Of a stretch of DNA of 64,000 bases, positions 4,325 through 49,176 are shown one piece after another. The DNA is from Actinobacteria bacterium UBA4426. Lineage in GTDB: Bacteria; Actinomycetota; Actinomycetes; S36-B12. The notes beneath the pieces were generated by a model. That model was not told where the DNA came from. It made no database searches and saw only the letters and a list, made by a program, of their open reading frames with translations. The stretch lies in the NCBI GenBank assembly GCA_002390705.1, contig DGQA01000031.1, positions 10,923-74,922 on the forward strand, written 5' to 3'. The first letter of the stretch is position 1. Each line of letters begins with the position of its first letter. Made by a program: the position numbers and the translations under genes.

Positions 4325-4741
4325 TCACGTTTTTGCCAGAAAAGACTTGACAGTTGACTCTGGCCAAGGCTGCGAACCGCCACTGGGATCGGGGAAATGA
4401 ACGGCGGTGTGGCGCCCTTCAATACAGAGACCCCCCTCCAGATTTTCCACCACGAATCCAAAAGACACCGAAGATCGACCCACCGCAATCACACCCACAG
4501 TGACATTTACTTCCTGGTTGAACCAGATCCGTTCGCGGTAATCCACTTCAACGTGCACCCGGGGAATTGCACCGGTCAACTCTGTGGGGAGCCCAATCGA
4601 ACGTCGAAGTTCATGCTCTACTTCCTCTAACCATCGGATTGCAACGGAGAAGTGGTTATGGCCAGCGGCATCCGTATCCGCCCACTCCAACCGTTTAAGG
4701 ACCATTATCGACGCCCCGGTGATCTCTGCTTTGACAGACAT
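4325..4741 (-). CDS. Hotdog-fold acyl-CoA thioesterase (4HBT/YbgC-like)
   Basis: 138 aa, containing RLEWADTDAAGHNHFSVAIRWLEEVEHE. The conserved Asp and overall pattern match 4HBT-type thioesterases. A paralogue lies at 45728-46162. Confidence 0.7.
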   Translation of the reverse strand: MSVKAEITGASIMVLKRLEWADTDAAGHNHFSVAIRWLEEVEHELRRSIGLPTELTGAIPRVHVEVDYRERIWFNQEVNVTVGVIAVGRSSVSFGFVVENLEGGLCIEGRHTAVHFPDPSGGSQPWPESTVKSFLAKT

Positions 4742-4974
4742 GTGCGCATGGTAACAACAGGTGGCCGCTTTATGAGAGTGGAAATACGCTTACCACCGAG
4801 TCTGAATAATGCGGCTTGGTCCATCGACTTCTTGTGAAACGACAATCCGATCTGGGAATCGTTCCTTTATTTCGCTCACGTGGCTAATTACCCCGATGGT
4901 TTGACCGCCTGAGAGTGAGGTCGTCGAACGAGGGTCTGCCATTGATTCATCCATCACACTGATTCCAAGACCGG
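4709..4974. repeat. Left copy of a diverged direct repeat (thioesterase 5' end, intergenic spacer and sbcC 3' end) flanking the GC-rich block
   Basis: In my hand alignment, 4709-4912 matches 12702-12905 with 25 mismatches in 204 positions and no indels. 4913-4974 matches 13077-13138 with 7 mismatches in 62. The left copy lacks the 171 nt that correspond to 12906-13076. Confidence 0.85.
4790..4974 (-). pseudogene. sbcC: sbcC 3'-terminal fragment (truncated, with an internal deletion)
   Basis: The translation ...GLGISVMDESMADPRSTTSLSGGQTIGVISHVSEIKERFPDRIVVSQEVDGPSRIIQTRW parallels the C-terminus of the intact SbcC at 12783-15524 (...GLGISVMDESTGEPRPTTSLSGGETFY...GGRTIGVISHVSEMKDRFPDRIVVSREIDGPSRIIQTRS). 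It lacks the 57 codons between the two SGG sites and everything upstream. Confidence 0.85.
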
Positions 4975-5084
4975 CTGTCGACCTCGCTGGTCGTCTCCGC
5001 ACCGCCGTCTCCGTCGTTGCTGCCGCAGGCCACGGCTGCCCCTAGAAACACCACGCAGCTGAGAGCTGCCAGAAATCACTTCAT
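4975..5084 (-). pseudogene. Lipoprotein signal-peptide remnant (5' gene fragment with an in-frame TGA)
   Basis: The minus strand from the ATG at 5084 reads M K * F L A A L S C V V F L G A A V A C G S N D G D G G A E T T S E V D S. This looks like a signal peptide with lipobox AVAC, but codon 3 is TGA (5078-5076). The frame also runs out of frame into the sbcC fragment at 4974. Confidence 0.45.
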
Positions 5085-5191
5085 TGCCTACGCCTCTGAT
5101 CATTGACACACACCCAGATGAATGTCCATTTGATTCTTACTAATTACCGAACCATGTGTCAACGATCACAAAGAATCAATCGCAGTGATTC

Positions 5192-6163
5192 TCAGACGAA
5201 CCGCAGCACGGTCTTGCCCAGACTCTTCCGATCGAGCATTGCGCGCATGGCTGCGGCGATGTCTTCGACCGGAACGATCTGACGCACGTCGGGTCGGACC
5301 GCTCCTGATTCGACCAGCGGCATCAGTTCGTCCCACTGCTGCCGCGCGAACCCTGGATGCGCGCGCGTCCACGGACCCCAGGCAACACCGGAGACGTCGA
5401 TGTTCGCGAGTAGCAGGCGGTTCAGCCGGACCGACGGAATCTCGCCGGCGACGTACCCCAACGAGAGTAGCCGGCCACCGATGGTCAGCGAGCGCAAAGA
5501 CTCCAGCACGACCTGGTCGCTCCCGATCACATCGAGGACCACGTCCGCACCGAGGCCGCCAGTGAGGTCGCGGACGCGCTCGGCGCTGGCGCCCTCGATG
5601 ATCTCGTCGGCTCCCATCGTGGTCGCGAATGCGGCCTCCTCGGCCGAGGACACCATGCCGATCACCCTGCAGCCGAGACCGGCGGCGATCTGCACGGCGG
5701 CGGACCCGACACCGCCGGCCGCGCCGTTGACGACGACGACGGACCCCGGGCGGACCCGCGCCCGCACGGCCAAAGCGAAATGAGCAGTGAGGTAGTTGAG
5801 GGGCATCGCGGCGCCCTGATTGAAGTTGAGCGACTGCGGGAGCGGGAAGACCCGTTCGGACGGCACGGCGACCACCTCGGCCGCACTTCCGTACGCCGAC
5901 CAGCCGGCCACTCGGTCACCGGCAGTGAACCCGAGCGCTGCCGCGTCCTGGGAAACCACCCCTGCGAAGTCGACGCCAAGGACGAAGGGCACCTCGGGCT
6001 TGATCTGGTAGCGACCCTCGCTCATCAGTAGGTCGGGGTAGGAAAGGCCGACACTGTGCACCTCGATCAGAACCTCGTCCTCGCCGGCCACAGGAGCAGG
6101 ACCGATCTCGCCAACCCGAACGCCGTCGGGCCCATCCAGTGCGACGACCTGGGCAGCCCTCAT
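5192..6163 (-). CDS. NADPH:quinone oxidoreductase / zinc-type alcohol dehydrogenase superfamily (MDR) protein
   Basis: The true start is MRAAQVVALDGPDGVRV... (ATG at 6163-6161), forming an ATGA overlap with the upstream CoA-transferase stop. Contains the Rossmann motif AAGGVGSAAVQIA. The 133-aa Arg/Pro-rich N-terminal extension in the ORF track is read-through of the upstream gene. Confidence 0.85.
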   Translation of the reverse strand: MRAAQVVALDGPDGVRVGEIGPAPVAGEDEVLIEVHSVGLSYPDLLMSEGRYQIKPEVPFVLGVDFAGVVSQDAAALGFTAGDRVAGWSAYGSAAEVVAVPSERVFPLPQSLNFNQGAAMPLNYLTAHFALAVRARVRPGSVVVVNGAAGGVGSAAVQIAAGLGCRVIGMVSSAEEAAFATTMGADEIIEGASAERVRDLTGGLGADVVLDVIGSDQVVLESLRSLTIGGRLLSLGYVAGEIPSVRLNRLLLANIDVSGVAWGPWTRAHPGFARQQWDELMPLVESGAVRPDVRQIVPVEDIAAAMRAMLDRKSLGKTVLRFV

Positions 6164-7257
6164 CGGACCCAGCCGGTGAGCACATCCGAGACCGTCACAG
6201 GGCGAGCTCCAGGGGGTATCGGTGTGGTGGTGGTGGATCGGCTGAAGCGAGGTGCTGGCGCCGGTTGCGCTACCCCGTCGAGCTCGACGTAGGCGGACCG
6301 GCTGCGGGCATGCGCATCCTGGAGGGCCTCGCTGAAGGTGAGGACCGGAGTCGCGCAAGCGTCGGACCCCTCGAAGACCTGAGCCCAGGCATCGCGGGAA
6401 CGGTTGGCGACAGCGGCGGTGATCCGTTCGCGTATCCCCGGCCAGGCCGCGCGGTCGTATTGGTCGCCGATGGTGTCGGGATCGATCTCGAGGTTGGCCA
6501 GCAGGATCGCGAAGAACTTCCGTTCGATCGCGCCGATGGCCAGGTAGCGACCGTCCAAACAAGTGTAGGTGTCGTAGAAGGGCGCGCCTCCGTCCAGGAG
6601 GTTACTCTGCCGCTCCTCCGACCAGGTGCCGGCACCGCGCATCGCCCACATCTTCTGGGCGATGATGCCGATCCCGTCGACCATGGCGGTGTCGACGACC
6701 TGTCCGTGTCCGGACCGCTCCCGCTCCCAGAGCGCCGCCAGCAAGCCGGTCACCAGAACCATCGAGCCGCCGCCGTAGTCGCCTAGCAAGGTGAGCGGAA
6801 CCGGTGGTGGTCGGTCGGCCTCGCCGAGCGCGTGCAGGACGCCGGTTGCCGCCAGGTAGTTCAGGTCGTGGCCGGCCGACATCGCCAGAGGGCCCTCGCG
6901 CCCCCAGCCCGTCATCCGGCCGAGGACCAGCCGGGGGTTCAGCTCCTGCAGTTCCTGTGGCCCCAGACCCATTCGTTCCAGGACGCCGGGCCGGAAGCCT
7001 TCGAGGAGGACGTCGGCGTTTCGGCAGAGCTCGCGTAGGTCCTGCAGTCCGGCCGCGGACTTGAGATCGAGGGTCGTGGTGCGCCGGCCGCGCAGGACAT
7101 GGTCGACCGAGCCGGCCAGTTCGGCCATAGGCGAAGCTCCCGGCCTGTCGATCCGGACGACGTCGGCACCGAGGTCGGCTAGCACCATGGCGGAGTGCGG
7201 CACGGGTCCCAGCGCCGCCAGTTCCAAGACGCGGAGGTCGCTGAGCGGCCCTGTCAA
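6160..7257 (-). CDS. Family III CoA-transferase (CaiB/BaiF/Frc family)
   Basis: The N-terminus (L)TGPLSDLRVLELAALGPVPHSAMVLADLGADVVRIDRPG is the canonical family III motif. The proposed TTG start at 7257-7255 forms a TTGA overlap with the MaoC stop. The longer ORF-track version overlaps the upstream gene. Confidence 0.8.
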   Translation of the reverse strand: MTGPLSDLRVLELAALGPVPHSAMVLADLGADVVRIDRPGASPMAELAGSVDHVLRGRRTTTLDLKSAAGLQDLRELCRNADVLLEGFRPGVLERMGLGPQELQELNPRLVLGRMTGWGREGPLAMSAGHDLNYLAATGVLHALGEADRPPPVPLTLLGDYGGGSMVLVTGLLAALWERERSGHGQVVDTAMVDGIGIIAQKMWAMRGAGTWSEERQSNLLDGGAPFYDTYTCLDGRYLAIGAIERKFFAILLANLEIDPDTIGDQYDRAAWPGIRERITAAVANRSRDAWAQVFEGSDACATPVLTFSEALQDAHARSRSAYVELDGVAQPAPAPRFSRSTTTTPIPPGARPVTVSDVLTGWVR

Positions 7258-8114
7258 AGGAGGCCTCGGAAGTAGGCCTGGGCTTGGAGGTGAGTCTGAC
7301 CGGAGGGCCGGGCCACGTGGATCACGAAGCGGCGGGTGGCAGGGGCGGGCACCTCGTAAATGCGGTAGGTGAGAGCGTCGCCTGGCCATGCCTGAGCTTT
7401 CCAGCGGCAGACCAGTCGAGTCAGGTGGGCGGTGTCGTCGAGAGTCGAGAGAAGGGTGCCGACGACGCCGGCAGTCAGCATTCCGACTGCGAACGGACCG
7501 GGGTAGCCGCCGGCCTCGGCGAAGGCTTGGTCGTGATGGATCGGGTTGAAGTCTCCCGATGCCCCTTGGTACCGGACGAAGTCGGTGATGGTGAGCGGTT
7601 CGTCGGTCAACGCGAGGACTAGTTCATGGTCCTCAGGAGCGGACCAGGTCGGAACAACTGCCGTCGGGACAGTCCCGGGCGAACTCTGTTCGAGGAGGAT
7701 CGAGGTGGCACGCAGACTCGCCACCACGTCGTTTCCGCCAATGGGGACGAAGTTGGTGACGGTTTCTGTGAACTCCATCGTCCCGCGTCCACCGGGCTTC
7801 TCGTAGACCCGGTCGATGCGCTCGATGCCGGTCAACTCCGCGCCGATCGCGGGCGGGCCGGTGGAAAAGGTGAACTCCTGCTCCCCGTGCAGCACCCGGC
7901 GGTAGTCGCGATCGATGCCGTGCCAGGCGCTGTCTTCGGGCGCCAGCCAGAACCGGGCTGAGGCCAGAAAGGTCACCGGCGAGCAGACCGGGTGCGGCTG
8001 GTCCTTGGTCCAGGAGGTCGGGCGGGTCGCTCGGTGGAACTCTCGGCACTTTCCCAGCTCAACCGGCATCCGAAACGGTCGTCCGGTGCGACCAGCTAGG
8101 TCGCTCGTCGTCAT
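7254..8114 (-). CDS. Double-hotdog MaoC-like (R)-specific enoyl-CoA hydratase/dehydratase
   Basis: The C-terminal half carries the MaoC motif YQGASGDFNPIHHDQAFAEAGGYPGPFAVGML. The N-terminal half is a second hotdog-like domain. Confidence 0.8.
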   Translation of the reverse strand: MTTSDLAGRTGRPFRMPVELGKCREFHRATRPTSWTKDQPHPVCSPVTFLASARFWLAPEDSAWHGIDRDYRRVLHGEQEFTFSTGPPAIGAELTGIERIDRVYEKPGGRGTMEFTETVTNFVPIGGNDVVASLRATSILLEQSSPGTVPTAVVPTWSAPEDHELVLALTDEPLTITDFVRYQGASGDFNPIHHDQAFAEAGGYPGPFAVGMLTAGVVGTLLSTLDDTAHLTRLVCRWKAQAWPGDALTYRIYEVPAPATRRFVIHVARPSGQTHLQAQAYFRGLL

Positions 8115-8184
8115 GCTGCTGTCCGGCGACGGGGTGGAACATCCGAGCGCCCAGTGGAGGGTCGGGCGCCCGCTTGGCTTGATG

Positions 8185-9690
8185 TCAGCGAAGCGGCCAC
8201 TGGATGTGCTTCACCTGGAAGAACTCGCGGAAACCGTCCTCGCCCATCTCGCGGCCGAAGCCGCTGAGGCCGAAGCCGCCCCAGGGTCCCTCGGGCCTCA
8301 TGAAACCGCCGCCGTTGACGGTGACCGCTCCGGTCCGCAAGCGAAGAGCGAGCTGATGTGCCTCGGCGGGCTCGCCGAAGACGGCGGCATGCAGCCCGTA
8401 CGGAGAGTCGTGGGCGATGGCGAGCGCCACCTCGACGTCATCGTAGGGGAGCAATGTTCCGACCGGACCGAAGAGCTCCTCCTGGCAGATGAGGTCGGAG
8501 TTGTTGACGTTGCCGATGATCGCCGGGTTCATGAAGTAACCCGGAAGCCCTTCAGGGCGTCCGCCGCCGGCGACGAGTGATCCGCCGCGCTCCAGGGCTC
8601 CGTTGAGGTGACCCTCTACGAAGTCGCGTTGCTCCGCCCTGATCAGCGGTCCGAGGTCGGTGTCCTCGGCCCATGGCGAACCCACCTTCATCTCGGCCAT
8701 GAATCGGAAAGCGGCGTCGGCGTACTCGTCATACATGGCGCGCGGCACTAGGGTCCGTGTCGTGGCTCCGCAGCCCTGTCCGGAGTTCCGGGCGAACCGG
8801 TAGATGCTGTTCGCTACGACGTCGTCCACGTCTGAGCCCGGCAGGATGATCGAGGCAGACTTACCACCCAGCTCGAGGACCAGGCGCTTGGTTGTATGGG
8901 CCGCGGCCTGCATGATGTGCCGGCCGACCGCCAGTGAACCAGTGAACATCACCATGTCGACGTCGGGGTGAGAGCTGAGGGTCTCACCCACGTCGCCGTC
9001 TCCCATCACGAAGTTGACTACGCCCTGGGGGAGGTCCGCTCTCTCGACGAGCCGCATGAACGCCAAGGTCGCCAGCGGCGTCCGCGGGGAGGGCTTGAAG
9101 ACCAGGGAGCAGCCGGCAGCCAGACCGGGCCCGAGCTTCCAGGCGACCGAGTTAATCGGGAAGTTGTAGCCGGTGATCCCGGCGACCACCCCGACCGGGA
9201 TCCGCTGCAGCAGCGAGTTGCTGGCCGGTGGACCCAGGTGCGGCGGGAGGCCCTCCTGGTAACCGCCGTGGGGGCCCTTCAGAGCCATGTCGGCGGCCCA
9301 TCGCAGGTTGCCGATCGGCATCCCGACCTGCATCGCCCGGGTGAGCCCGATGGGGGTGCCGACCTCCGTCACGATGATCTCGGCCAGCTCCTCGCGGTGC
9401 CGATCCATGATATCGGCGATCTGGAGGATCACTTCCGAGCGCTCCCGGGGAGTGGCGTCCTTCCACGGCCCTAAGTCGAAAGCCCTGCGAGCAGAGGCGA
9501 CCGCGCGCTCGGCCTGGGAGGTCGTGGCGTTGGCGACGGTCCGGATCTCCTCGGTGGTGCTCGGGTTAACGATGTTCAACCGAGTGTCGGCGTCACCGTC
9601 CTCCCATGTGCCGTTGATCCAGTTGGTCGGCCCGTCGATGAGGGCCTGGGCAGCGGGGCTCAGAGTGCGGGCGAGGTCGTTCGTGGTCAT
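8185..9690 (-). CDS. NAD(P)-dependent aldehyde dehydrogenase
   Basis: Contains ALDH motifs FTGSLAVGRHI, LELGGKSA and the catalytic-Cys region NSGQGCGATTR. The likely start MTTNDLARTL (ATG at 9690-9688) lies 2 nt after the upstream SDR stop. Confidence 0.9.
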   Translation of the reverse strand: MTTNDLARTLSPAAQALIDGPTNWINGTWEDGDADTRLNIVNPSTTEEIRTVANATTSQAERAVASARRAFDLGPWKDATPRERSEVILQIADIMDRHREELAEIIVTEVGTPIGLTRAMQVGMPIGNLRWAADMALKGPHGGYQEGLPPHLGPPASNSLLQRIPVGVVAGITGYNFPINSVAWKLGPGLAAGCSLVFKPSPRTPLATLAFMRLVERADLPQGVVNFVMGDGDVGETLSSHPDVDMVMFTGSLAVGRHIMQAAAHTTKRLVLELGGKSASIILPGSDVDDVVANSIYRFARNSGQGCGATTRTLVPRAMYDEYADAAFRFMAEMKVGSPWAEDTDLGPLIRAEQRDFVEGHLNGALERGGSLVAGGGRPEGLPGYFMNPAIIGNVNNSDLICQEELFGPVGTLLPYDDVEVALAIAHDSPYGLHAAVFGEPAEAHQLALRLRTGAVTVNGGGFMRPEGPWGGFGLSGFGREMGEDGFREFFQVKHIQWPLR

Positions 9691-9692
9691 GG

Positions 9693-10463
9693 TCACCGTG
9701 CGAGGAACCCTCCGTCGACGGGCAGGGCGACGCCAGTTACCCAACTCGCGTCGTCACTGGCGAGGAAGGCCGCTGCGCTGGCGATCTCCTCGGGTGCTGC
9801 CGCTCGGCCCATCGGGACCGACGCCTTGTATGTGGCCTTGAGGTCTTCGATGTCGGCGCCGTTCTCCCGACCGAAGAACTGCGAGAGCATCGGCGTCTCG
9901 ATCATCGCAGGCAGGATCGCGTTGGAGCGGATCCCCTCAGGACCGAGCCGGACGGCGAGCGACTTCATGAACAGCACGATGCCTCCCTTGGACATCGAGT
10001 ACAACGGGCTGAACGGCGAGCCGACCACCCCGGAGACCGACGACGTGAACAGAATCGATCCCTTGCCTTCGGCTTTCTGGATCAACGGCAACGCGAACTG
10101 GGTCGCGTAGAACGCGCTGCGCTGATTGACGTTGATGAGCTTCTCGAAATCGGCCGATTCGATGTCGAGCCCGGCCGCACCTGGAATGCCGGCGTGGTTG
10201 AAGAGCACGTGTAAAACTTTGAAGTCCCGGGCCACTTGATCGATCATCGAGCGGATCTGATCGTTGTCCCCGACGTCGCAGACGATCGCGGTGGCAGCAC
10301 CGCCGGCTTCCTCGATCTCGGTGACGACAGCCTTCGCCGCGTTTTCGTCGATGTCGGAGACGACGACGTGCGCGCCCTCGCTAGCGAAGCGCACGGCGCT
10401 CGCCCTGCCCATCCCTGAGCCACCCGCTGTGATCAGCGCGACCCTGTTTTCAAGTCGTCTCAC
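9693..10463 (-). CDS. Short-chain dehydrogenase/reductase (SDR)
   Basis: GTG start at 10463-10461, preceded by RBS GAAGGAG. Cofactor motif ITAGGSGMGRA and the catalytic Y-x3-K (YSMSKGG). The ORF-track N-terminal extension of 82 aa is spurious. Confidence 0.85.
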   Translation of the reverse strand: MRRLENRVALITAGGSGMGRASAVRFASEGAHVVVSDIDENAAKAVVTEIEEAGGAATAIVCDVGDNDQIRSMIDQVARDFKVLHVLFNHAGIPGAAGLDIESADFEKLINVNQRSAFYATQFALPLIQKAEGKGSILFTSSVSGVVGSPFSPLYSMSKGGIVLFMKSLAVRLGPEGIRSNAILPAMIETPMLSQFFGRENGADIEDLKATYKASVPMGRAAAPEEIASAAAFLASDDASWVTGVALPVDGGFLAR

Positions 10464-10521
10464 ACTCTTACTCCTTCGATTCTCCGTGTCGGGCGCTCTC
10501 CCCTGGGTGTGTTCGGTGTGG

Positions 10522-10722
10522 TCAGCGGACCTTGTAGCCGCCGTCGGCCACCAAGGCGTGCCCGGTGACGTAGGAGGAGCTCTCCGAGCACAGCCATGCG
10601 ACGGCCTGGGCGATTTCGGCAGGCTTGCCGATCCGGGTGAGGACGCAACCGATCCGGTCGATGTACTCGGCGTCGGACTCGGTGCTGCCCTTACGGCGGC
10701 GAGCAGCAATCGGGGTGTCCAT
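10522..10722 (-). pseudogene. C-terminal fragment of a second SDR gene
   Basis: ...RIGKPAEIAQAVAWLCSESSSYVTGHALVADGGYKVR matches only the last 45 or so residues of an SDR. The Rossmann and catalytic parts are absent, and nothing upstream encodes them. Confidence 0.6.
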
Positions 10723-11037
10723 CACTCTCCTCTTTCCTTGGACATCCATGGAGGGGTCCCACGGTTGAACCCACTCACAAATTCAGTCTTGGCATGCCCT
10801 ATCATTATCATCAATTGTCGCCGCCAAGTCAAGCCTCCGACAAGTCATCATCGATAAGCCATTTCTCATCCCTGAGGATGCTCACCATTACCCGGGCACT
10901 CTTAAGTGGGACACGGAGAGTGTTATGCGGCTGGTTTCGTGAGTCTCGTCGGGGGTTGGTCATGGCACAAATTTCGTGGCTACAGTCACCATGTAATCGC
11001 ACGCCAAAGCAAGAGCCGGAACGAGGAGTGCCGAACT

Positions 11038-12672
11038 ATGAGGAGCTACCGGGGGCTGATCGTCCCCTTCGAGAATCCCCTTGACTGGACTCTCGCCAAG
11101 GTGCTGCGCCACCAGGCCTGCGAACGACCCAACAAGGTCTACCTCGATGCCCCCGAGGAGGGCGTCACGATGACCTACGGTGAGACGCTCGACGCGGCAG
11201 AGGCCGTCGCTCGGTCGCTCTGTGCCACCGGATCGACATACGGCGACCGCGTGATGATCCTGGCCCAGAACTCCTCGCAGCTGGTGCTCACCTGGTTTGG
11301 TACGGCAGTTGGCGGCTTCGTCGAGGTTCCGATCAACACCGCGTACGAGTTCGACTTCCTTGCCCACCAGATCCGGACCGCGCAACCGACGGTCGCCATC
11401 ATCGACGACCGATTCGCGCACCGCTTCGTCTCCATCAAGGAGGACTGCGCCGGGCTCGAGCGGTTCTGGGTCATCGACAACGGTGAGCTCGACACCGCCC
11501 TAAAGACGTTGAGAGACGCCGGCTGGGCAGCAGAGCCTTGGGACGACCTGCTCACCCGTCGGGAGGCAGAGCTGCCTGAGGTTGTGGCTCGTGACCTGGG
11601 GGCGATCTTCTTCACCTCCGGCACGACCGGGCCTTCGAAGGGTGTGGCGATGTCGCACTCGCAGTTCTACTTCGACGCGGTCGAGTGCTACAACCTGACT
11701 CGGCTCACCAGTGAAGACACCTACATGGTGACTACGCCGCTCTTCCACGGCAACGCTCAGTGGCTCGCCGCGTACCCGGCGCTGGTCGCGGGCGCCCGCT
11801 TCGTACTCCGGCGTAAGTTCAGCGCGAGCCGCTGGATCGACTGGGTGCGCGAGAGCGGAGTCACGGTCACGAACTTCCTCGGCGTGATGATGGACTTCGT
11901 GTGGAAACAACCAGTGCGCGAGGACGACGCCGACAACCAGTTGCGGTGCATCTTTGCAGCCCCGACGGCCAGCTCGATCGTGGACGGGTTCCGGCAGCGC
12001 TTCGGAGTCGAGGCGTTCGTGGAGGTCTTCGGACTCACCGAAGTTTCCATGCCGATCCTTTCGCCGTATGGCGAGGACCGGCCGGCCGGCGCCGCCGGGC
12101 TGGCCGTGAACGAGTGGTTCGACATCCAGCTGGTCGACCCCGAGACCGACAAGGAGGTGGCCATCGGCGAGGTCGGAGAGCTGGTCGTCCGGTCCAAGTA
12201 CCCATGGACACTAAGCAACGGCTACCACGGCGCCCCAGAGAAGACCCTGGAGGCGTGGAGAAACCTGTGGTTCCACACTGGAGATGCACTGCGCCGGGAC
12301 GAGGAAGGCTGGTATTACTTCGTCGACCGCTACAAGGACGCGCTCCGGCGACGCGGCGAGAACATCAGCTCGTACGAGATCGAGCAGGCAGTGCTTTCTC
12401 ACCCCAATGTCTTGGAGTGCGCCGTGATCGCGGTCCCGGCGACGATCGAGGCCGGCGAGGACGAGGTGATGGCCTGCGTGGTCACCGATGGGATGATCGA
12501 ACCGGTAAAGCTCTACGCGTTCTGCTCGACGAAGATGCCGTCGTTCGCGCTTCCCCGGTTCATCCGCGTCCTTCCCGAGCTGCCGAAGACGCCCTCGGAG
12601 AAGGTGCAGAAGTCTGAGCTGCGCGCAGCAGGAGTCACCGCCGACACCTTCGATTGGGAGGCTGCCGGGTGA
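11038..12672 (+). CDS. AMP-forming acyl-CoA synthetase/ligase (ANL superfamily)
   Basis: ATG at 11038 preceded by GAGGAG. AMP-binding signature FFTSGTTGPSKGV, and later GELVVRS...YHG...WFHTGD...GENISSYEIE. The C-terminal Lys region is LPKTPSEKVQK. Confidence 0.85.
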   Translation: MRSYRGLIVPFENPLDWTLAKVLRHQACERPNKVYLDAPEEGVTMTYGETLDAAEAVARSLCATGSTYGDRVMILAQNSSQLVLTWFGTAVGGFVEVPINTAYEFDFLAHQIRTAQPTVAIIDDRFAHRFVSIKEDCAGLERFWVIDNGELDTALKTLRDAGWAAEPWDDLLTRREAELPEVVARDLGAIFFTSGTTGPSKGVAMSHSQFYFDAVECYNLTRLTSEDTYMVTTPLFHGNAQWLAAYPALVAGARFVLRRKFSASRWIDWVRESGVTVTNFLGVMMDFVWKQPVREDDADNQLRCIFAAPTASSIVDGFRQRFGVEAFVEVFGLTEVSMPILSPYGEDRPAGAAGLAVNEWFDIQLVDPETDKEVAIGEVGELVVRSKYPWTLSNGYHGAPEKTLEAWRNLWFHTGDALRRDEEGWYYFVDRYKDALRRRGENISSYEIEQAVLSHPNVLECAVIAVPATIEAGEDEVMACVVTDGMIEPVKLYAFCSTKMPSFALPRFIRVLPELPKTPSEKVQKSELRAAGVTADTFDWEAAG

Positions 12673-12689
12673 TGGCGAGAAGCCTCGCG

Positions 12690-12734
12690 TCACCAGACGA
12701 ACGACGCCCCGGTGATCTCCGTTTTGACAGAAAT
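12690..12734 (-). pseudogene. Remnant of the thioesterase 5' end (right-hand repeat copy)
   Basis: Reads I S V K T E I T G A S F V W *, against MSVKAEITGASIMVLK... in the intact gene at 4741. The start codon position is ATT instead of ATG. Homology ends at 12702. Confidence 0.7.
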
Positions 12735-13138
12735 GTGGTCAGGGTATCAACAGGTGACTGCATTCAGTGAGTAGAAATACGACTACGACCGAGTCTGAAT
12801 AATGCGGCTTGGTCCATCGATTTCTCGAGAAACGACAATCCGGTCTGGGAATCGGTCCTTCATTTCGCTCACGTGGCTAATTACTCCGATGGTTCGACCG
12901 CCTGATTTAAGTTGATCTAGTTGGTCGAGCACTCGCTCTAAAGTTTCTGTGTCAAGAGAACCAAATCCTTCGTCAACAAAAAGAGTCTCGAGTGAAACCC
13001 CGCCAGTCTCACTTTGAACTACATCAGCTAAACCCAAAGCCAGTGATAAGGACGCATAAAAAGTTTCACCGCCTGAGAGCGAGGTCGTCGGACGAGGCTC
13101 TCCCGTTGATTCATCCATCACACTAATTCCGAGACCGG
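12702..13138. repeat. Right copy of the diverged direct repeat (thioesterase 5' remnant, intergenic spacer and the 3' end of intact sbcC)
   Basis: See the left copy at 4709-4974. It contains two 8-bp direct repeats, ccgcctga (12898-12905 and 13069-13076), that delimit the segment missing from the left copy. Confidence 0.85.
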
Positions 13139-15524
13139 TGTTCCCGCGACCGGTAGCGTCTTCATCAAGAAGAAATGACAACCGGCCGCTACTCATTTTG
13201 CGTAAGTGAATTGATGCCGATTCCAATACGTGGGCAAATCGAAGTTGCAGCGCGTAGCTCTCTAAAGTTAATTTTTTGGTATTTACGGAAGACTTTGCGG
13301 TAACAATTGCCCCCAAAGAAACTGATTCAGCCAGGTTGATGGAAAGTTTTTCCACACCTTTTTTTTCTTTCACGAATTTCTTCACCAGAGTCGATACCGA
13401 CTTGGCGGTACTTAACGCGATGGTGTGACTATCTTCGGCCTTTTTGACCACTTCCTGCGCTTGCGTGAGTTCAGCCTTCACTTTGTCGAATTTTGCAGAG
13501 AATTCGTGACTATTAATGTGCAGGACCTCAGGGGAAAGTGTCTTGGCCATCGAATCAAATTCGTGTTGCGCATCGAGCCATCCACTCAACCGAGTGTTAC
13601 TAGTTTCAAGCTTAATGAGAGTGTCCGAAGGATTTTCGTCGACACCTATCAACTTCGCTAGATCTGATTCTTTTTGTTTGACCTCAGCATCGAATTCAAA
13701 CAATTGTGTGCGCGAAATCTCAAGCTCTTGCTCTACTAGCACTCGTGCATCAGCACTAGTCTTATATTCGAGATCTAGTTGTATGAGTTTTGCTTGTAAA
13801 CGTTCGCTTTGTTCCAATAGATTCCGCTTGAGCGTTATCTCTGCTTCTAATTGGGCCAGAACTGTCGCTACGTCTTTGGGTGAACTACCTGACACTTTTC
13901 CGTTCAACGTGGCCAGCTCTATTTTTGCTTGTGATACCTCAGAATTTCGCGCCTCTACCTTCATTTTCTGATCGTTTCGCAGTGTCCTAGCGGTTTTTAA
14001 CCCATTTTCCAACGACTCTAATACACGATCGGTAATGAGTTCTATCCCCACTTCGCCGCTTGCAGGTCGCGGGTGATGAAGGGAACCACACACTGCACAA
14101 GGCTCTCCGTTTGCCAATTCACTAGCCAGTACTGCGACTCGATGCTCAAGTTGTGTGCGCTGCGCTTGAGAGAGTGCGAGTTCTGATCGGGCTACTTCGT
14201 ACTCGCACTTCTGTAGTTCCAATTGGTACTGTGTGAGTTCTTCACCCAATTGCAAATGATAGGCCTCTGCTTTTTCCAACTGAGTGAGTAGTTGGGAAAT
14301 TTTTTTCTGAATTTCTACTTGCTCTTCCAATTCACTTATCTGCATTGCAGCACCAGTTGATACTGAAATTTCTTCTTTCATTTCAATAGCTAATCGCGGG
14401 TAATCCGCAATAGAGTCGGTGAGTTTCGTGCGGTGCATTTCTTTTTCGTTTAATTCCGCGACCAACTTCTCCCGCCGAGATGTGCGCTTCGTCACCGCGA
14501 TTTGCCAATCAACCAACGGCTTTAACTGACCAATGAGCTCGTGGTTTGCGACAATTAACCCAGGAACTTTATCTAGTGAGAGTTCCCGCTCATCCGACCC
14601 TAATTTGTCTCGAGTTTCCTTGACCAGTCCCTCGAGTTGAATTAATTTCCCGAGTTTTTCCTGGATATCAATGAGATCATTAAATTGGATGTGAAGGGGC
14701 TCAGCGAATAACCTCGCTTCTTCCTTATGTGATTCAGCATTTTGTGCCGTTAGTTCAAAATGGTTATTCACTTCTTGGGTGATAGTAATTGCATCACTCG
14801 GGTGTGAATCAACGAGTTCATCAACTCGCTCATGTAAGTCGCTTGGGTCAGAGTCACTCAACATTCCTTGAATCTGGACGGCGATATCCCTGATTGCTGA
14901 GTGAGCACTCTCGATCGCGAACTCTGCTTGTTTCCCACGTTGGTCCAGCTCGCTCTGCAATTGTGCATAAAAGTTGTCTCCCAGTAAATCTCGTAATGCC
15001 TTCAGTCGATCGCTTGGATTCATGCGTAACAACGCAGCGAATTCACCTTGGGCCAAGACAACGAGTTGCCGAAACTGCTGGGCATTTAAGTGCAGTAGAT
15101 CTGTGAGGTAGCTGCCAATCTCTGTGGCGTGGGTGAGTGCAAAATCTTGCTCCCCAGTGGAATCAAATCTGATTAATGACTGGGTCGCTGCGCGTTTGGT
15201 CTCGCCAGTTCCGTCTTCTCTGACAAATAAGTATGGAATCCCACGAATAATCTTGTGCCTAATTCCATTAACCGAGAAATCGAGCACTATCTGTGAACGT
15301 TCAGGTCCTTCGCTGTAATCACTGCGTATTCGGTCTTTTGCCGACTCCTGCCCGCTTAAAGTGCTGAATAATGCGTAGGTGATCGAGTCAATGATCGTGG
15401 TCTTGCCGGTCGCGGTGGGTCCGTCAATTAGGAACAGGCCTGCAGAACTGAGCTCATCAAAATTGACCACCTGCTTGTCACGAAACGGGCCGATCCCAGT
15501 AATTTCAAGTGCATGAATCCTCAC
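12783..15524 (-). CDS. sbcC: SbcC/Rad50-family DNA double-strand-break repair ATPase
   Basis: 913 aa. N-terminal Walker A GPTATGKTT, long coiled-coil, zinc hook CAVCGSLHHP, C-terminal signature SLSGGE and Walker B LFVDEGFGSLD. GTG start forming a GTGA overlap with sbcD. Confidence 0.9.
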   Translation of the reverse strand: MRIHALEITGIGPFRDKQVVNFDELSSAGLFLIDGPTATGKTTIIDSITYALFSTLSGQESAKDRIRSDYSEGPERSQIVLDFSVNGIRHKIIRGIPYLFVREDGTGETKRAATQSLIRFDSTGEQDFALTHATEIGSYLTDLLHLNAQQFRQLVVLAQGEFAALLRMNPSDRLKALRDLLGDNFYAQLQSELDQRGKQAEFAIESAHSAIRDIAVQIQGMLSDSDPSDLHERVDELVDSHPSDAITITQEVNNHFELTAQNAESHKEEARLFAEPLHIQFNDLIDIQEKLGKLIQLEGLVKETRDKLGSDERELSLDKVPGLIVANHELIGQLKPLVDWQIAVTKRTSRREKLVAELNEKEMHRTKLTDSIADYPRLAIEMKEEISVSTGAAMQISELEEQVEIQKKISQLLTQLEKAEAYHLQLGEELTQYQLELQKCEYEVARSELALSQAQRTQLEHRVAVLASELANGEPCAVCGSLHHPRPASGEVGIELITDRVLESLENGLKTARTLRNDQKMKVEARNSEVSQAKIELATLNGKVSGSSPKDVATVLAQLEAEITLKRNLLEQSERLQAKLIQLDLEYKTSADARVLVEQELEISRTQLFEFDAEVKQKESDLAKLIGVDENPSDTLIKLETSNTRLSGWLDAQHEFDSMAKTLSPEVLHINSHEFSAKFDKVKAELTQAQEVVKKAEDSHTIALSTAKSVSTLVKKFVKEKKGVEKLSINLAESVSLGAIVTAKSSVNTKKLTLESYALQLRFAHVLESASIHLRKMSSGRLSFLLDEDATGRGNTGLGISVMDESTGEPRPTTSLSGGETFYASLSLALGLADVVQSETGGVSLETLFVDEGFGSLDTETLERVLDQLDQLKSGGRTIGVISHVSEMKDRFPDRIVVSREIDGPSRIIQTRS

Positions 15525-16706: not shown

Positions 16707-18089
16707 CTAAATAGAGTCGCGGGCCATGTCAACAAAGCGCGAATAGTGGCCTTGAAAGGCCACCGTGACAGTCGCCGTCGGGCCATTGCGGTGCTTTGCA
16801 ACGATAAAGTCGGCTTCCCCTGCCCGAGGTGACTCACGGTCGTAGGCGTCCTCGCGGTGAAGTAGCACCACCATATCTGCATCCTGCTCCAGCGATCCCG
16901 ACTCGCGTAGGTCAGAAAGCATTGGCCGTTTGTCTTGACGTTGTTCCGGTCCACGGTTGAGCTGACTGATGGCAATCACGGGGACTTCAAGTTCCTTTGC
17001 CAGCAGTTTTAAGGATCTGGAGAACTCGGAAACCTCCTGCTGGCGGTTCTCAACGCGCTTCCCGCTTGTCATGAGTTGTAGGTAGTCAACAACAACGAGT
17101 TGCAAGTTATGGCGTTGCTTCAACCGACGACACTTTGCCCGAATTTCCATGAGGTTCATGTTGGGTGAGTCGTCAATGAAAAACGGTGCTTCGCTGACCG
17201 TACCCATCTTATTGGCAAGTTTCGCCCAGTCGGCTTCACTCATCTGACCCGAACGCATGTGATGTAACGCGACCTGGGCTTCTGCAGATAGCAGACGCAT
17301 CACGATTTCGTTGCGACTCATTTCAAGTGAAAAAATAACGCTCGTTAATCCATGCTTAATGGAGGCGCTCCGACAAATATCAAGACCGAGCGTTGATTTA
17401 CCCAGTGCGGGGCGCGCTGCAACAATAACGAGTTGCCCGGCATGTAGTCCGTTTGTGAGCGTGTCCAACTCAGCAAACCCGGTTGGTACACCAACCATTT
17501 CACCATCGCGATTAGAGATCGCTTCAATCTCACTCAAGGTTCCCTGCATGATGTCACTTAAAGGTGCGTAGTCCTCGCTTGACCGGCGCTCCGTTACTTC
17601 GTAGACCTCGGCTTGGGCGCGGTCAACTGCGTCGTCCACTTCACCTTGACCGCTGTAACCGAGATGCACAATCCGTGTTCCCGCAGTAACGAGTCTGCGT
17701 AAAATTGCTTGCTCCCGAACAATGCGCCCGTAGTAATTCGCGTTGGCAGCCGTGGGAACCATGGAAACTAAAGTGTGTAAATAGGAGGGTCCGCCGATCC
17801 GAGTAATTTCGCCCGACTTGGTCAACTCTGAAGCCACTGTCACGGCGTCAGCCGGCTCGCCTCGACCGTAAAGATCTAAAATTGTGTCGTAGATTGTGGA
17901 GTGTGACGGCCGATAAAAGTCGTCGGCGCGGATTGATTCAACTACGTCCGCGATTGCGTCTTTACTCAACAGCATCGCACCCAGCACCGACTGCTCGGCG
18001 GCTTCATCATTGGGGGGTGTGCGATCCGGTGCGGCAGAATAGGCAGAGTCCCGGGGTTCTTCGGGGATATGTAGCTCGGAGACGCTCAA
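16707..18089 (-). CDS. dnaB: Replicative DNA helicase DnaB
   Basis: 460 aa. N-terminal AEQSVLGAMLL, Walker A ARPALGKST, and later motifs VVVDYLQLM and SQLNRGPEQR. No intein. Confidence 0.95.
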   Translation of the reverse strand: MSVSELHIPEEPRDSAYSAAPDRTPPNDEAAEQSVLGAMLLSKDAIADVVESIRADDFYRPSHSTIYDTILDLYGRGEPADAVTVASELTKSGEITRIGGPSYLHTLVSMVPTAANANYYGRIVREQAILRRLVTAGTRIVHLGYSGQGEVDDAVDRAQAEVYEVTERRSSEDYAPLSDIMQGTLSEIEAISNRDGEMVGVPTGFAELDTLTNGLHAGQLVIVAARPALGKSTLGLDICRSASIKHGLTSVIFSLEMSRNEIVMRLLSAEAQVALHHMRSGQMSEADWAKLANKMGTVSEAPFFIDDSPNMNLMEIRAKCRRLKQRHNLQLVVVDYLQLMTSGKRVENRQQEVSEFSRSLKLLAKELEVPVIAISQLNRGPEQRQDKRPMLSDLRESGSLEQDADMVVLLHREDAYDRESPRAGEADFIVAKHRNGPTATVTVAFQGHYSRFVDMARDSI

Positions 18090-23311: not shown

Positions 23312-24100
23312 GTGCGTATTGCAACCTGGAATGTGAACTCGGTGGGTGCCCGACTTGATCGGTTAGTGGAGTGGCTCCAGAGCGCTCAACCCGATGTGGT
23401 GGCGTTGCAAGAGTTGAAATGCACCGACGAGGCGTTCCCACACCTACCAATCCAAGCAGCGGGCTACGAAGCCGTCACCCACGGCACCGGTCGTTGGAAT
23501 GGTGTTGCGATTCTTTCTCGGGTTGGCGCAACCGACGTTGTTCGGGGTTTAGTTGGACAACCTGATTTCGACGGGGCTTCCGAGCCACGGGCAATTGGAG
23601 CAACCTGCAATGGTGTGCGGGTCTGGAGTGTCTACTGCCCTAATGGTCGCGAACCAAGCCATGATCACTACAGGTACAAGTTGGAGTGGTTCACAGCGTT
23701 GAATGTGACCGCAAAATCAGAAATAGCCGACCATCCTGATCTACCGTTCGCTGTGATCGGTGACTACAACATCGCTCCGACTGACGAGGACGTGTGGGAC
23801 ATCGAAAAATTTGTTGATTCAACACATGTGACACTGGCGGAGCGTGCTGCACTGACCGACCTTGAAGCCATGGGCTTGATTGAGACCGTGCCGCGATCCC
23901 TTAAGGGTGAACCGTACACATTCTGGGACTACCGCAATGGTTCCTTTCACCGTGGTTGGGGGATGCGGATTGACCTTGTCTATGGGAATCAGGTGTTCAC
24001 GTCACTAGTGCAGGATTCATACGTCGATCGCGATGCACGTAAGGGAAAAGGCGCCTCCGATCATGCACCTGTTGTTGTCGATCTAGATTTGTCCGTATGA
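23312..24100 (+). CDS. xthA: Exodeoxyribonuclease III (AP endonuclease)
   Basis: (V)RIATWNVNSVGARLDRLVEWL...PDVVALQELKC at the N-terminus and a C-terminal SDHAPV motif. GTG start. Confidence 0.9.
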   Translation: MRIATWNVNSVGARLDRLVEWLQSAQPDVVALQELKCTDEAFPHLPIQAAGYEAVTHGTGRWNGVAILSRVGATDVVRGLVGQPDFDGASEPRAIGATCNGVRVWSVYCPNGREPSHDHYRYKLEWFTALNVTAKSEIADHPDLPFAVIGDYNIAPTDEDVWDIEKFVDSTHVTLAERAALTDLEAMGLIETVPRSLKGEPYTFWDYRNGSFHRGWGMRIDLVYGNQVFTSLVQDSYVDRDARKGKGASDHAPVVVDLDLSV

Positions 24101-25212
24101 GTCGTGAAGTCCGGCGGATTAGTGTCGAGCAGCATTCAGGGTTCCTAAATGGTGTGATTGCTTCTGGAACCACTTCGGTTTCTTTTTTGCAATTACCCGA
24201 ATGGGGTAATGTCAAAGTGGGGTGGCGACCAGAGTCGGTTGGTTGGTTTGAAGAATCCACACTTGTGGGCGTTGCATTGGTGTTGTATCGCCCTATTCCA
24301 AAATTGCCGCAGCGTTCTTTGGCATACGTTCCCGAAGGTCCGGTTATTGATTGGGAAAGTGGCGATCTTTCTTCATGGTTGTCACCTTTGGTCTCGCACG
24401 TTAAGGGTCGTGGCGCGTTTCAATTAAAGATGGGCCCGCCCGTTGCCATCAAACAATGGGACGCGCAAACAATCAAGAGTGCAATCGGTGAAATCTCACT
24501 GCTTGGAGATGTTCCAAGTGATCGCAAATTCTCACTTGATGACTCGGTGATCAAGTCCATGCGTTCACTTGGATTCGTACAAGAGGAAAACGTTAGTGCT
24601 GGTTTCGGTGACGTACAACCACGTTATGTTTTTCAAGTACCACTTGCCGGTCGCAGTGAAGCCGAATTATTCGCCGGCTTCAACCAGCAGTGGCGACGTA
24701 ATGTTCGCAAGGCTGAAAAGGCCGGTGTTGAAATTTCAATTGGCACGCGCGATGACCTGGCTGCCTTTCACCGGGTTTATGTTGAGACAGCTTCGCGTGA
24801 TGGTTTCACACCGCGAGGCTTGGTCTACTTCCAACGCATGTGGGATGCACTAAGTGATCATTTTACTTTGCATGTTGCGCGCCATGACGGTCATGTTGCT
24901 GCTGCGACAATCATGATCACCGTTGGCGCGCATGCTTGGTACTCCTACGGTGCCTCCACTACCGCCGATCGTGATGTTCGTCCTTCGAATGCATTGCAGT
25001 GGTCCATGATCAAGGCAGCACGTGAATCGGGTTGTTCGGTATATGACCTGCGCGGTATTTCCAACACCTTGGACAGCTCAGATCACCTCTTTGGCTTGGT
25101 GTCTTTCAAACTGGGTTCGGGTGGCTACGCCCAGGAATACGTCGGCGAGTGGGACTGTGTGATTCGTAAGTCTTGGGCTCGCGCTTTTTCGATCTACCAG
25201 CGGCGAGGCTAG
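24097..25212 (+). CDS. FemAB-family peptidoglycan interpeptide-bridge aminoacyltransferase (FemX-like)
   Basis: 371 aa. FLQLPEWGNVKVGWRPESVGWF...AYVPEGPV...FNQQWRRNVRKAEKAGV...YSYGAS... matches the FemABX family pattern. ATGA overlap with xthA. Confidence 0.8.
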   Translation: MSREVRRISVEQHSGFLNGVIASGTTSVSFLQLPEWGNVKVGWRPESVGWFEESTLVGVALVLYRPIPKLPQRSLAYVPEGPVIDWESGDLSSWLSPLVSHVKGRGAFQLKMGPPVAIKQWDAQTIKSAIGEISLLGDVPSDRKFSLDDSVIKSMRSLGFVQEENVSAGFGDVQPRYVFQVPLAGRSEAELFAGFNQQWRRNVRKAEKAGVEISIGTRDDLAAFHRVYVETASRDGFTPRGLVYFQRMWDALSDHFTLHVARHDGHVAAATIMITVGAHAWYSYGASTTADRDVRPSNALQWSMIKAARESGCSVYDLRGISNTLDSSDHLFGLVSFKLGSGGYAQEYVGEWDCVIRKSWARAFSIYQRRG

Positions 25213-48679: not shown

Positions 48680-48798
48680 GTGCAGATACTTTCACGCTAC
48701 CGTTAGGGGTACTCGCGCGGGCGGTGAATTTGCCCACGCAATGCTTCACGGGCGTAATGCCCGTGTTCCGGGTCACCAGTAAGCGAAACGAGGAATTG

Positions 48799-48871
48799 TG
48801 GAGCTTAGGAGACTCGAACTCCTGACATCTGCCTTGCAAAGGCAGCGCTCTACCAACTGAGCTAAAGCCCC
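48799..48871 (-). tRNA. tRNA-Ala (anticodon UGC)
   Basis: The minus strand GGGGCTTTAGCTCAGTTGGTAGAGCGCTGCCTTTGCAAGGCAGATGTCAGGAGTTCGAGTCTCCTAAGCTCCA folds into a cloverleaf by hand. The G3:U70 identity pair is present and the anticodon loop is TTTGCAA. CCA is not encoded. Confidence 0.9.
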
Positions 48872-49054: not shown

Positions 49055-49101
49055 ACCGTGAAGATACACGCTTAACGAAGTTGCTCCACACCTACCTCTC
49101 G

Positions 49102-49176
49102 TGGGCCCAGATGGACTTGAACCATCGACCTCTTCCTTATCAGGGAAGCGCTCTAACCAAGCTGAGCTATGGGCCC
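49102..49176 (-). tRNA. tRNA-Ile (anticodon GAU)
   Basis: The minus strand GGGCCCATAGCTCAGCTTGGTTAGAGCGCTTCCCTGATAAGGAAGAGGTCGATGGTTCAAGTCCATCTGGGCCCA forms a complete cloverleaf. The anticodon loop is CTGATAA. Confidence 0.9.

Follow-up and report, generated by a model that had tools for sequence, protein, structure and literature searches.

A catabolic island of probable foreign origin, flanked by an imperfect target duplication, between sbcC and a thioesterase gene of a marine actinobacterium

The horizontal transfer of catabolic operons and the presence or absence of islands in core regions are already well known, and the case presented here leaves current views on both as they stand. Integrase-free 'flexible' islands and acquired catabolic operons lie between core genes, are present in some relatives and absent from others, hold no mobility genes, and are spread or lost by way of flanking homology. 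Islands, integrative and conjugative elements (ICEs) and prophages that target tRNA genes or the 3' end of other genes show a deviant G+C content, direct repeats at their ends, and insertion at a 3' end with restoration of the gene. In the Campbell-type insertion-duplication of suicide plasmids, two direct copies of the target remain, with intact neighbouring genes and truncated duplicates, and recombination between the repeats reverses the event. Homology-facilitated illegitimate recombination (HFIR) is described for naturally competent bacteria and for conjugation in E. coli (PMC3240628). In this study I describe a GC-rich block of 7.7 kb with six metabolic genes (positions 4975-12701) that separates sbcC from a thioesterase gene in a 64,000-nucleotide stretch of Actinobacteria bacterium UBA4426 (contig DGQA01000031.1), hereafter the window. 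I consider this block, with a probability of about 80%, a horizontally acquired island from a high-GC donor, inserted a single time by recombination and with duplication of its target.

The block resembles flexible islands in being a foreign operon between core genes, patchily distributed among relatives and devoid of mobility genes. Unlike those islands it is bracketed by a long imperfect duplication of its target (437 bp, of which 204 and 76 bp are left), which records the route of entry and could itself mediate excision. The two direct target copies, the intact neighbours and the truncated duplicates are those of a Campbell insertion; however, no vector backbone, replication gene or selectable marker accompanies them, a circular intermediate is hypothetical, and the copies are by now 12% diverged and partly deleted. 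With HFIR the locus shares the use of host recombination without an element-encoded recombinase, but HFIR typically loses recipient DNA, whereas here the target was duplicated. The deviant composition, the terminal direct repeats and the insertion at a 3' end with restoration of the gene recall the islands, ICEs and prophages mentioned above, from which the block differs by the lack of an integrase, an excisionase, a tRNA gene and a short identical att core, and by a repeat that spans parts of two genes. It is equally unlike an insertion sequence or composite transposon, as there is no transposase and there are no terminal inverted repeats, and the duplication measures 437 bp instead of 2-15 bp. 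The locus is a clean, well-delimited natural case in which a streamlined marine actinobacterium acquired a functioning catabolic operon from far-removed high-GC relatives, with no mobile-element machinery involved. Filled and empty sites are both kept in sister lineages, and the dead target ends constrain the mechanism to target-duplicating recombination. Its value is that of an unusually well-documented natural integration with target duplication; otherwise it is fairly ordinary horizontal gene transfer.

The compositional step is pronounced. The G+C content of 4975-12701 is 65.4%, against 50.8% in the rest of the window, and compared with host windows of 7.7 kb (mean 50.8%, standard deviation 1.0, maximum 52.6) the block has a z of approximately 14. 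In the six block genes, G+C at third codon positions (GC3) amounts to 0.79-0.85, in 15 flanking genes to 0.43-0.57. The tetranucleotide distance between block and host reaches z=29 in raw form and z=21 after normalisation for G+C; likewise, the deviations in tetranucleotide usage of block and host correlate at 0.41, while those of host windows correlate at 0.83-0.91. After correction for G+C, the correlation of the block with high-GC loci from Actinomycetota, which include parts that are not homologous to the block, is 0.84-0.88. The right edge is sharp, with the G+C of 100-bp windows changing from 0.64 to 0.49 across position ~12700, while the left edge is composite: 64% G+C in 4975-5084, 39% in 5085-5191, and at least 65% from 5192 onwards. 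Long antisense open reading frames crowd the block, and the origin of replication is near, with gyrA, gyrB, recF, dnaN and dnaA at 50.5-60.1 kb, yidC and rsmG at 61.2-63.4 kb, and dnaA at approximately 46 kb from the block. The original prediction, made from the sequence of the window, had claimed an abrupt change in composition, a high density of antisense reading frames and an origin-proximal core location, all of which hold.

The same prediction had reported the absence of mobile-element hallmarks, and this part stands as well: Pfam and NCBIfam assign no integrase, transposase or excisionase domain to the block, all open reading frames of 4742-12782 being metabolic genes or remnants, no recombinase was called in any block-bearing contig, no tRNA gene lies within 36 kb of the block (the nearest are at 48.8-49.2 kb), and the block ends carry no terminal inverted repeats. 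What it had missed is the direct repeat around the block. Comparison of the window with itself reveals a 204-bp imperfect direct repeat of 88% identity at 4709-4912 and 12702-12905, with a longest mismatch-free core of 33 bp (4795-4827), and this is continued by a second direct repeat of 76 bp and 89% identity (4899-4974 and 13063-13138). In the left copy of the 204-bp repeat, the 33 bp with which the thioesterase gene begins are joined to 48 bp of intergenic sequence and to 123 bp from the sbcC 3' end; in the right copy the thioesterase start is dead (12702-12734, where ATG became ATT), and it is here that the 123 bp of sbcC beyond the intergenic region are functional. When compared with the relatives L021, L023 and L080, 4709-4974 and 12702-13138 each align to one and the same junction, which is single-copy and contiguous there. 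In the original event a target of 437 bp was duplicated, made up of the 3'-terminal 356 bp of sbcC, the adjoining spacer (48 bp) and the 5'-terminal 33 bp of the thioesterase gene. As a consequence of this duplication both host genes are intact, and a dead copy of each end remains.

The displaced or duplicated sbcC 3' end (sbcC', 4790-4974, minus strand, translated as TAGLGISVMDESMADPRSTTSLSGG/QTIGVISHVSEIKERFPDRIVVSQEVDGPSRIIQTRW and a stop) is still in frame, but 171 bp between two 14-nt repeats are gone from its interior, and several of its substitutions are non-synonymous. These decay marks are common to the window and L081, whereas in L022 most of sbcC' is replaced by 70 bp of unrelated filler, from which it follows that the remnants erode independently. 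A 12-bp tandem duplication (TTGATACCCTGA) in the right-copy spacer of L078 (L078:10751-10871) is further evidence of drift in a non-functional spacer copy.

The host was placed by a scan for SbcC in species-representative genomes, and more lineages were obtained by protein search and contig look-ups. The relatives recovered through SbcC are marine metagenome-assembled genomes labelled 'Candidatus Nanopelagicales' or 'uncultured actinobacterium', and the host is a marine relative of 'Ca. Nanopelagicales' with ~51% G+C. With the SbcC of the window as reference (100%), the block is present in L079 (SbcC 98% identical), L078 (91%) and L022 (87%), in L081 (97.9% nucleotide identity) and in L082, a contig without sbcC that has a ligase of 96% identity and is 95.1% identical to L022 in nucleotides. 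The site is empty in L021 (SbcC 95%), in L023 and L038 (81%) and in L080 (77%). At these empty sites the thioesterase gene starts ~55 bp past the sbcC stop, as had been proposed for relatives without the block; for L021 this is seen on a single contig, which covers just the first 93 bp of the thioesterase gene. The right breakpoint, between 12701 and 12702, falls on the same nucleotide in the window, L081, L079, L078, L022 and L082, with …GGGGCGTCG before and TTCGTCTGG… after it in minus-strand sense, and at the left end a low-GC spacer and a dead lipoprotein fragment are common to the window and L022. From this identical right breakpoint in six lineages, together with the common left end, I conclude that the block was inserted once. 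A scan of metagenomes with the thioesterase protein recovered no new block-bearing lineage, only another empty site of the L023 type (L038) and one lineage in which the neighbourhood is different (L039). In actinobacterial metagenome contigs with a much higher G+C of 60-64% (L040-L046) the thioesterase, 47-64% identical, forms a conserved pair with a Peripla_BP_6 ABC-transporter gene. In these contigs sbcC does not adjoin the thioesterase gene; the adjacency of the two is limited to the marine clade.

Beyond the host clade, the acyl-CoA ligase of the block has its nearest homologues at 76-83% identity; those that bear a name all belong to high-GC Actinomycetota, among them Blastococcus, Pseudonocardiales, Dactylosporangium, Thermobifida and Nocardioides. 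Compared with genes of Actinomycetota of 67-72% G+C, identities are 63-73% for the alpha-methylacyl-CoA racemase (MCR), 71% for the aldehyde dehydrogenase (ALDH) and 75-86% for the short-chain dehydrogenase/reductase (SDR). Partial operon synteny is found in three loci of 67-72% G+C. In Blastococcus (L033) the genes for a quinone-oxidoreductase-like protein (QOR), the racemase and the MaoC hydratase are divergent from the ligase gene (QOR<-racemase<-MaoC); in L037 the order SDR->ALDH->MaoC->racemase is that of the window, with an ALDH of 71% identity; and in L035 (JGI 3300083162) the genes for SDR and a second SDR (SDR2) are divergent from that of the ligase, with 83% identity for the ligase and 86% for the SDR. 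These comparisons, which the original prediction had called for and which agree with it, indicate that the donor is a member of the high-GC (~67-72%) Actinomycetota of soil type. Only the last 67 codons of SDR2 are left in the window; the island therefore lost DNA after its arrival.

Between the window and L022, the block genes show a synonymous divergence (dS) of 0.12-0.21 with ratios of non-synonymous to synonymous divergence (omega) of 0.05-0.14, and the flanking core genes a dS of 0.13-0.33. As the dS of block and flanks is alike, the island dates from about the time at which these species separated, and its genes are kept by purifying selection. The GC3 of block genes (0.82-0.85) is 0.03-0.04 lower than that of the nearest source-like genes (0.86-0.89), a weak hint of amelioration. 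Polarising the substitutions between window and L022 with L035, L037 and L033 as outgroups gave 113 changes from GC to AT and 11 from AT to GC, but this test was uninformative, because saturation of the outgroups with G and C at synonymous sites would by itself lead one to expect ~9:1.

The abrupt composition steps at both ends and the metagenomic source of the sequence could be taken to mean that an assembler joined a high-GC contig from another organism into a low-GC genome. The likelihood of such a chimera, which had been raised as an alternative in case the junctions would not be spanned, is practically nil. Exact-protein look-ups of the two flanking genes recovered more than 20 contigs with the arrangement of sbcC, block and thioesterase gene and at least 99.93% nucleotide identity to the window, from different projects and assemblers (ENA and JGI, with MEGAHIT- and SPAdes-style names), and the 163-kb contig L081 spans both junctions as well; its many frameshift-split genes suggest a long-read assembly. 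Moreover, the same breakpoint occurs in the diverged L022 (92% average nucleotide identity) and in L078, L079 and L082, and the junction repeats, at 12% divergence, are too different to mislead an assembler. If the junctions are real, the block could still be an old resident segment that is GC-rich by selection or biased gene conversion and was lost in some relatives, as the dS of its genes between window and L022 is near that of core genes and purifying selection acts on them. I regard this as very improbable. The site is cleanly empty in the outgroups L023/L038 and L080, GC-normalised tetranucleotide usage fits high-GC Actinomycetota and not the host, the closest homologues outside the clade and the partial operon synteny are found in that same group, and the block lies between dead copies of its target ends. 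All this agrees with the earlier proposal of a horizontally acquired GC-rich catabolic block that is not a classical mobile element, as supported by composition, empty sites and homologues.

How the foreign DNA was integrated is less clear-cut. The architecture of the target duplication, combined with the absence of integrase, transposase, tRNA and inverted repeat, leads me to propose recombination by host enzymes: a 437-bp duplication is far too long for the target-site duplication of a transposase, and the repeat is unlike an integrase core, as its similarity is graded, its copies are 12% diverged, and it covers parts of two genes. The foreign DNA entered the clade once, between sbcC and the thioesterase gene, most likely as a circle with its own copy of the junction that integrated by a single crossover of the Campbell type and so duplicated the junction; afterwards the island was passed on to descendants, and homologous recombination reshuffled it between close relatives. 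I prefer such an insertion-duplication, albeit at slightly worse than even odds. A site-specific integrative element aimed at the 3' end of sbcC, which carried a replacement 3' end and later had its integrase deleted, would also give direct repeats, since such elements often bring a copy of the 3' end of their target gene, and the decayed left junction, with its dead lipoprotein fragment and the filler in L022, shows that DNA was lost. However, no block-bearing lineage has an integrase or excisionase domain, the graded 437-bp repeat reaches into the thioesterase gene and has no short identical core, and nothing similar is present in plasmid, phage and viral collections, which makes this route quite improbable. 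Unlikely, too, is an illegitimate route in two steps or with a one-sided anchor. Either linear DNA was joined illegitimately inside the thioesterase gene by HFIR and then repaired with a wild-type fragment (sbcC', spacer and thioesterase gene) from a relative, or replication switched templates, copied foreign DNA and re-entered 437 bp upstream. HFIR is established for foreign DNA with a one-sided anchor (PMC3240628), and the 12% divergence of the repeat copies, with a left spacer close to L021 and a right one close to L022, would fit a different ancestry of the two. Yet HFIR normally yields an insertion with a deletion and not a duplication, and two rare events are required.

After its insertion, the block was subject to further recombination. 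The empty L021 is nested among block-bearing lineages: it shares 95.6% identity with the window and 95.1% with L078, which are 93.6% identical to each other. The L021 junction resembles the functional end of sbcC as far as the 33-bp core of the repeat, and beyond that point the left copy of the window. In addition, the nucleotide identity between window and L021 is 98-99% in sbcC down to ~12900 and then 90%, the change falling exactly at the edge of the repeat. Within the spacer, the right copy of the window resembles L022 and the left copy resembles L021. The history with the fewest events is a precise loss of the block from L021 by recombination between the repeats at the 33-bp core; a later gain of the block by the window lineage from an L022-like donor, with a crossover at the repeat and L021 never having acquired the block, accounts for the same data. 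Four-point distance sums on the spacer copies (0.369, 0.377 and 0.393) are star-like. The sites GGN, GAM and GAY at the sbcC 3' end were tried as markers for gain or loss and discarded, as right copies show all four allele combinations, which occur at two sites 12 bp apart and speak for recombination within the repeat. Under either history of L021, homologous recombination at the duplicated junction governs the presence or absence of the block. A more speculative idea is that the duplicated junction serves as a RecA-dependent attachment site, where the cassette loops out as a circle and, through a single crossover, re-inserts at naive junctions of sbcC and thioesterase gene in related genomes. 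If true, the circle would contain one hybrid repeat together with both illegitimate joints, and the block, as a 'homology-addressed' mobile island, would need no mobility gene to travel within a recombining clade. The reciprocal spacer pattern and the break in identity at the repeat edge fit such mobility; nevertheless I find it doubtful, and one ancestral insertion followed by loss in L021 explains the spacer pattern equally well.

Gene calls were checked against Pfam and NCBIfam. The block is flanked on the left by the intact host thioesterase gene (4HBT_2, PF13279; 4325-4741, minus strand) and on the right by the intact host sbcC (12783-15524, minus strand; Pfam and NCBIfam SbcC). The left end of the foreign DNA is marked by a frameshifted signal-peptide fragment of a lipoprotein (lipoprotein', 4975-5084, minus strand, 64% G+C, translation …FLAALSCVVFLGAAVACGSNDGDGG…), of which L022 has a copy with 87% identity where the lipobox Cys is lost. 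It is followed by the 39% G+C spacer (5085-5191) between the QOR stop and the dead lipoprotein start, which is conserved in L022; apart from L022, I found no origin for fragment or spacer among the sequences compared. Two sigma-70-like promoter matches, consensus matches only, are located on the minus strand at 5099-5162, upstream of the dead lipoprotein fragment, and judging from these sites read-through towards the thioesterase gene could now be possible.

The first of the minus-strand genes (5192-6163) codes for a 323-aa NAD(P)H oxidoreductase of the medium-chain dehydrogenase/reductase (MDR) family (Pfam ADH_N and ADH_zinc_N), the QOR mentioned above. It falls below the cut-off of the NCBIfam subfamilies PIG3 and acrylyl-CoA-reductase, and its PDB matches (4eye with 216 bits, and enoyl-reductase domains of fatty acid synthases) suggest that it is related to enoyl reductases; its omega is 0.11. 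Then follow the genes for the 365-aa racemase (6160-7257), for a 286-aa MaoC-type (R)-specific enoyl-CoA hydratase with double hotdog (7254-8114, Pfam FAS1_DH_region and MaoC_dehydratas; weak PDB matches to mycobacterial MaoC proteins, HadB and peroxisomal hydratase 2), for a 503-aa NAD(P)-dependent ALDH (8185-9696, Pfam Aldedh with 466 bits, omega 0.08) and for a classical SDR of 256 aa (9693-10463, Pfam adh_short). The best PDB matches of the latter are TsaC and butanediol and glucose dehydrogenases, by which it is probably an alcohol dehydrogenase. Three joints of the operon genes, including that of SDR and ALDH, are 4-bp overlaps, and a promoter-like site is present upstream of the operon. 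The SDR2 remnant (10522-10725, minus strand) was detected by tblastn; it is 67% identical to residues 204-270 of the intact, 270-aa SDR2 of L035 and is called as a 66-aa adh_short_C2 open reading frame in metagenome contigs. On the plus strand, divergent from the SDR operon, lies the gene for a 544-aa AMP-forming acyl-CoA ligase (11038-12672, Pfam AMP-binding), of the generic medium- or long-chain type (NCBIfam PRK06155, 483 bits, below cut-off), and behind its stop codon 29 bp of foreign tail (12673-12701) reach to the right breakpoint. Hence the six genes that had been listed earlier are borne out by Pfam and NCBIfam, but instead of two gene fragments there are four: SDR2' and lipoprotein' inside the block, sbcC' and the thioesterase start in the repeats.

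The 365-aa protein had been described as a family III CoA-transferase, which is correct for its fold and superfamily, but by its bit scores and motifs it is an orthologue of alpha-methylacyl-CoA racemase. It aligns end to end with M. tuberculosis MCR (Rv1143; 1X74) at 433 bits (E 7e-129), and scores 386 bits with Far (2G04) and at most 110 bits with YfdE, Frc, CaiB and BbsEF. Its GHD aligns with GHD 125-127 of MCR, and its GDYGGGS with GDFGGGS 155-161, which conserves the catalytic His and Asp positions (His126/Asp127 and Asp156 in M. tuberculosis numbering). On these grounds a role as true CoA-transferase of the itaconate/mesaconate type, indicated by the top NCBIfam matches, was dropped. In peroxisomes, AMACR and MFE-2 form a route for 2-methyl-branched acyl-CoAs, and in the block the racemase gene lies together with genes for an SDR and an (R)-specific MaoC hydratase, enzyme types that are also those of MFE-2. 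In comparison with MCR/Far and with AMACR and MFE-2, the block adds ALDH, MDR reductase and ligase, and is without acyl-CoA dehydrogenase and thiolase. As judged from homology, the block probably serves to channel alcohols, aldehydes or acids with a 2-methyl branch into beta-oxidation, with a 2-methyl-branched or isoprenoid-type compound as my best guess for the substrate. SDR and then ALDH would convert a 2-methyl-branched, isoprenoid-like alcohol to aldehyde and acid, the ligase would form the CoA ester, the racemase would epimerise the 2-methyl centre, and MaoC and QOR would hydrate or reduce enoyl intermediates; dehydrogenase and thiolase steps would be provided by the host, whose beta-oxidation would finish the breakdown. 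A functional link of the block with the adjoining host thioesterase and ABC transporter is speculation. In the literature I found nothing specific on this gene combination or on racemase-linked isoprenoid catabolism. With the block, an abundant uncultured marine lineage gains what is probably a module for branched-chain acids of the 2-methyl or isoprenoid type, which could matter for how phytol-like lipids are turned over in the sea.

Several points weigh against the history and function proposed here. The mechanism of integration is read from the architecture only, and among the loci examined there was no circular form, donor junction or vector; searches of plasmid, phage and IMG/VR collections for the latter turned up no more than matches to single genes, 65-68% identical, or none at all. 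At the left junction window and L022 are not alike, L022 having its 70 bp of filler, and the original left breakpoint is therefore not certain. Beside the QOR gene, a spacer of 39% G+C is unexpected if the donor was GC-rich, so that the block may have passed through another low-GC genome first. With respect to function, the block lacks genes for an acyl-CoA dehydrogenase, a thiolase, a regulator and a transporter, four of its proteins (ligase, ALDH, MaoC and QOR) stay under the equivalog cut-offs of NCBIfam, and the assigned substrate follows from homology.

Other features of the window and its relatives do not touch the block. In L023 the dnaB gene contains an in-frame insertion of 1188 bp (L023:2723-3910), an intein of 396 aa with LAGLIDADG and homing-endonuclease domains that is also found in L038, L027 and L028. 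It is missing from the window (dnaB at 16707-18089), L021 and L022, and is thus polymorphic within the group. The FemAB-like gene at 24097-25212 has a dS of 0.77 with respect to L022, compared with 0.13-0.33 for its neighbours, and nucleotide identity to L022 drops to 73-81% in 24300-25200; this region is a locally hypervariable or recombined cell-wall locus. Beyond the left end of the window, the contig L012 (SOLA scaffold_87) differs in structure from other population contigs downstream of the ABC transporter (L012:15298-18747), with an SDR of 350 aa instead of 267 and an OYE-type gene of 451 aa instead of 785. The only tRNA genes in the window, tRNA-Ala(TGC) and tRNA-Ile(GAT) at 48798-48871 and 49101-49176 on the minus strand, form a pair that is typical of rRNA spacers.

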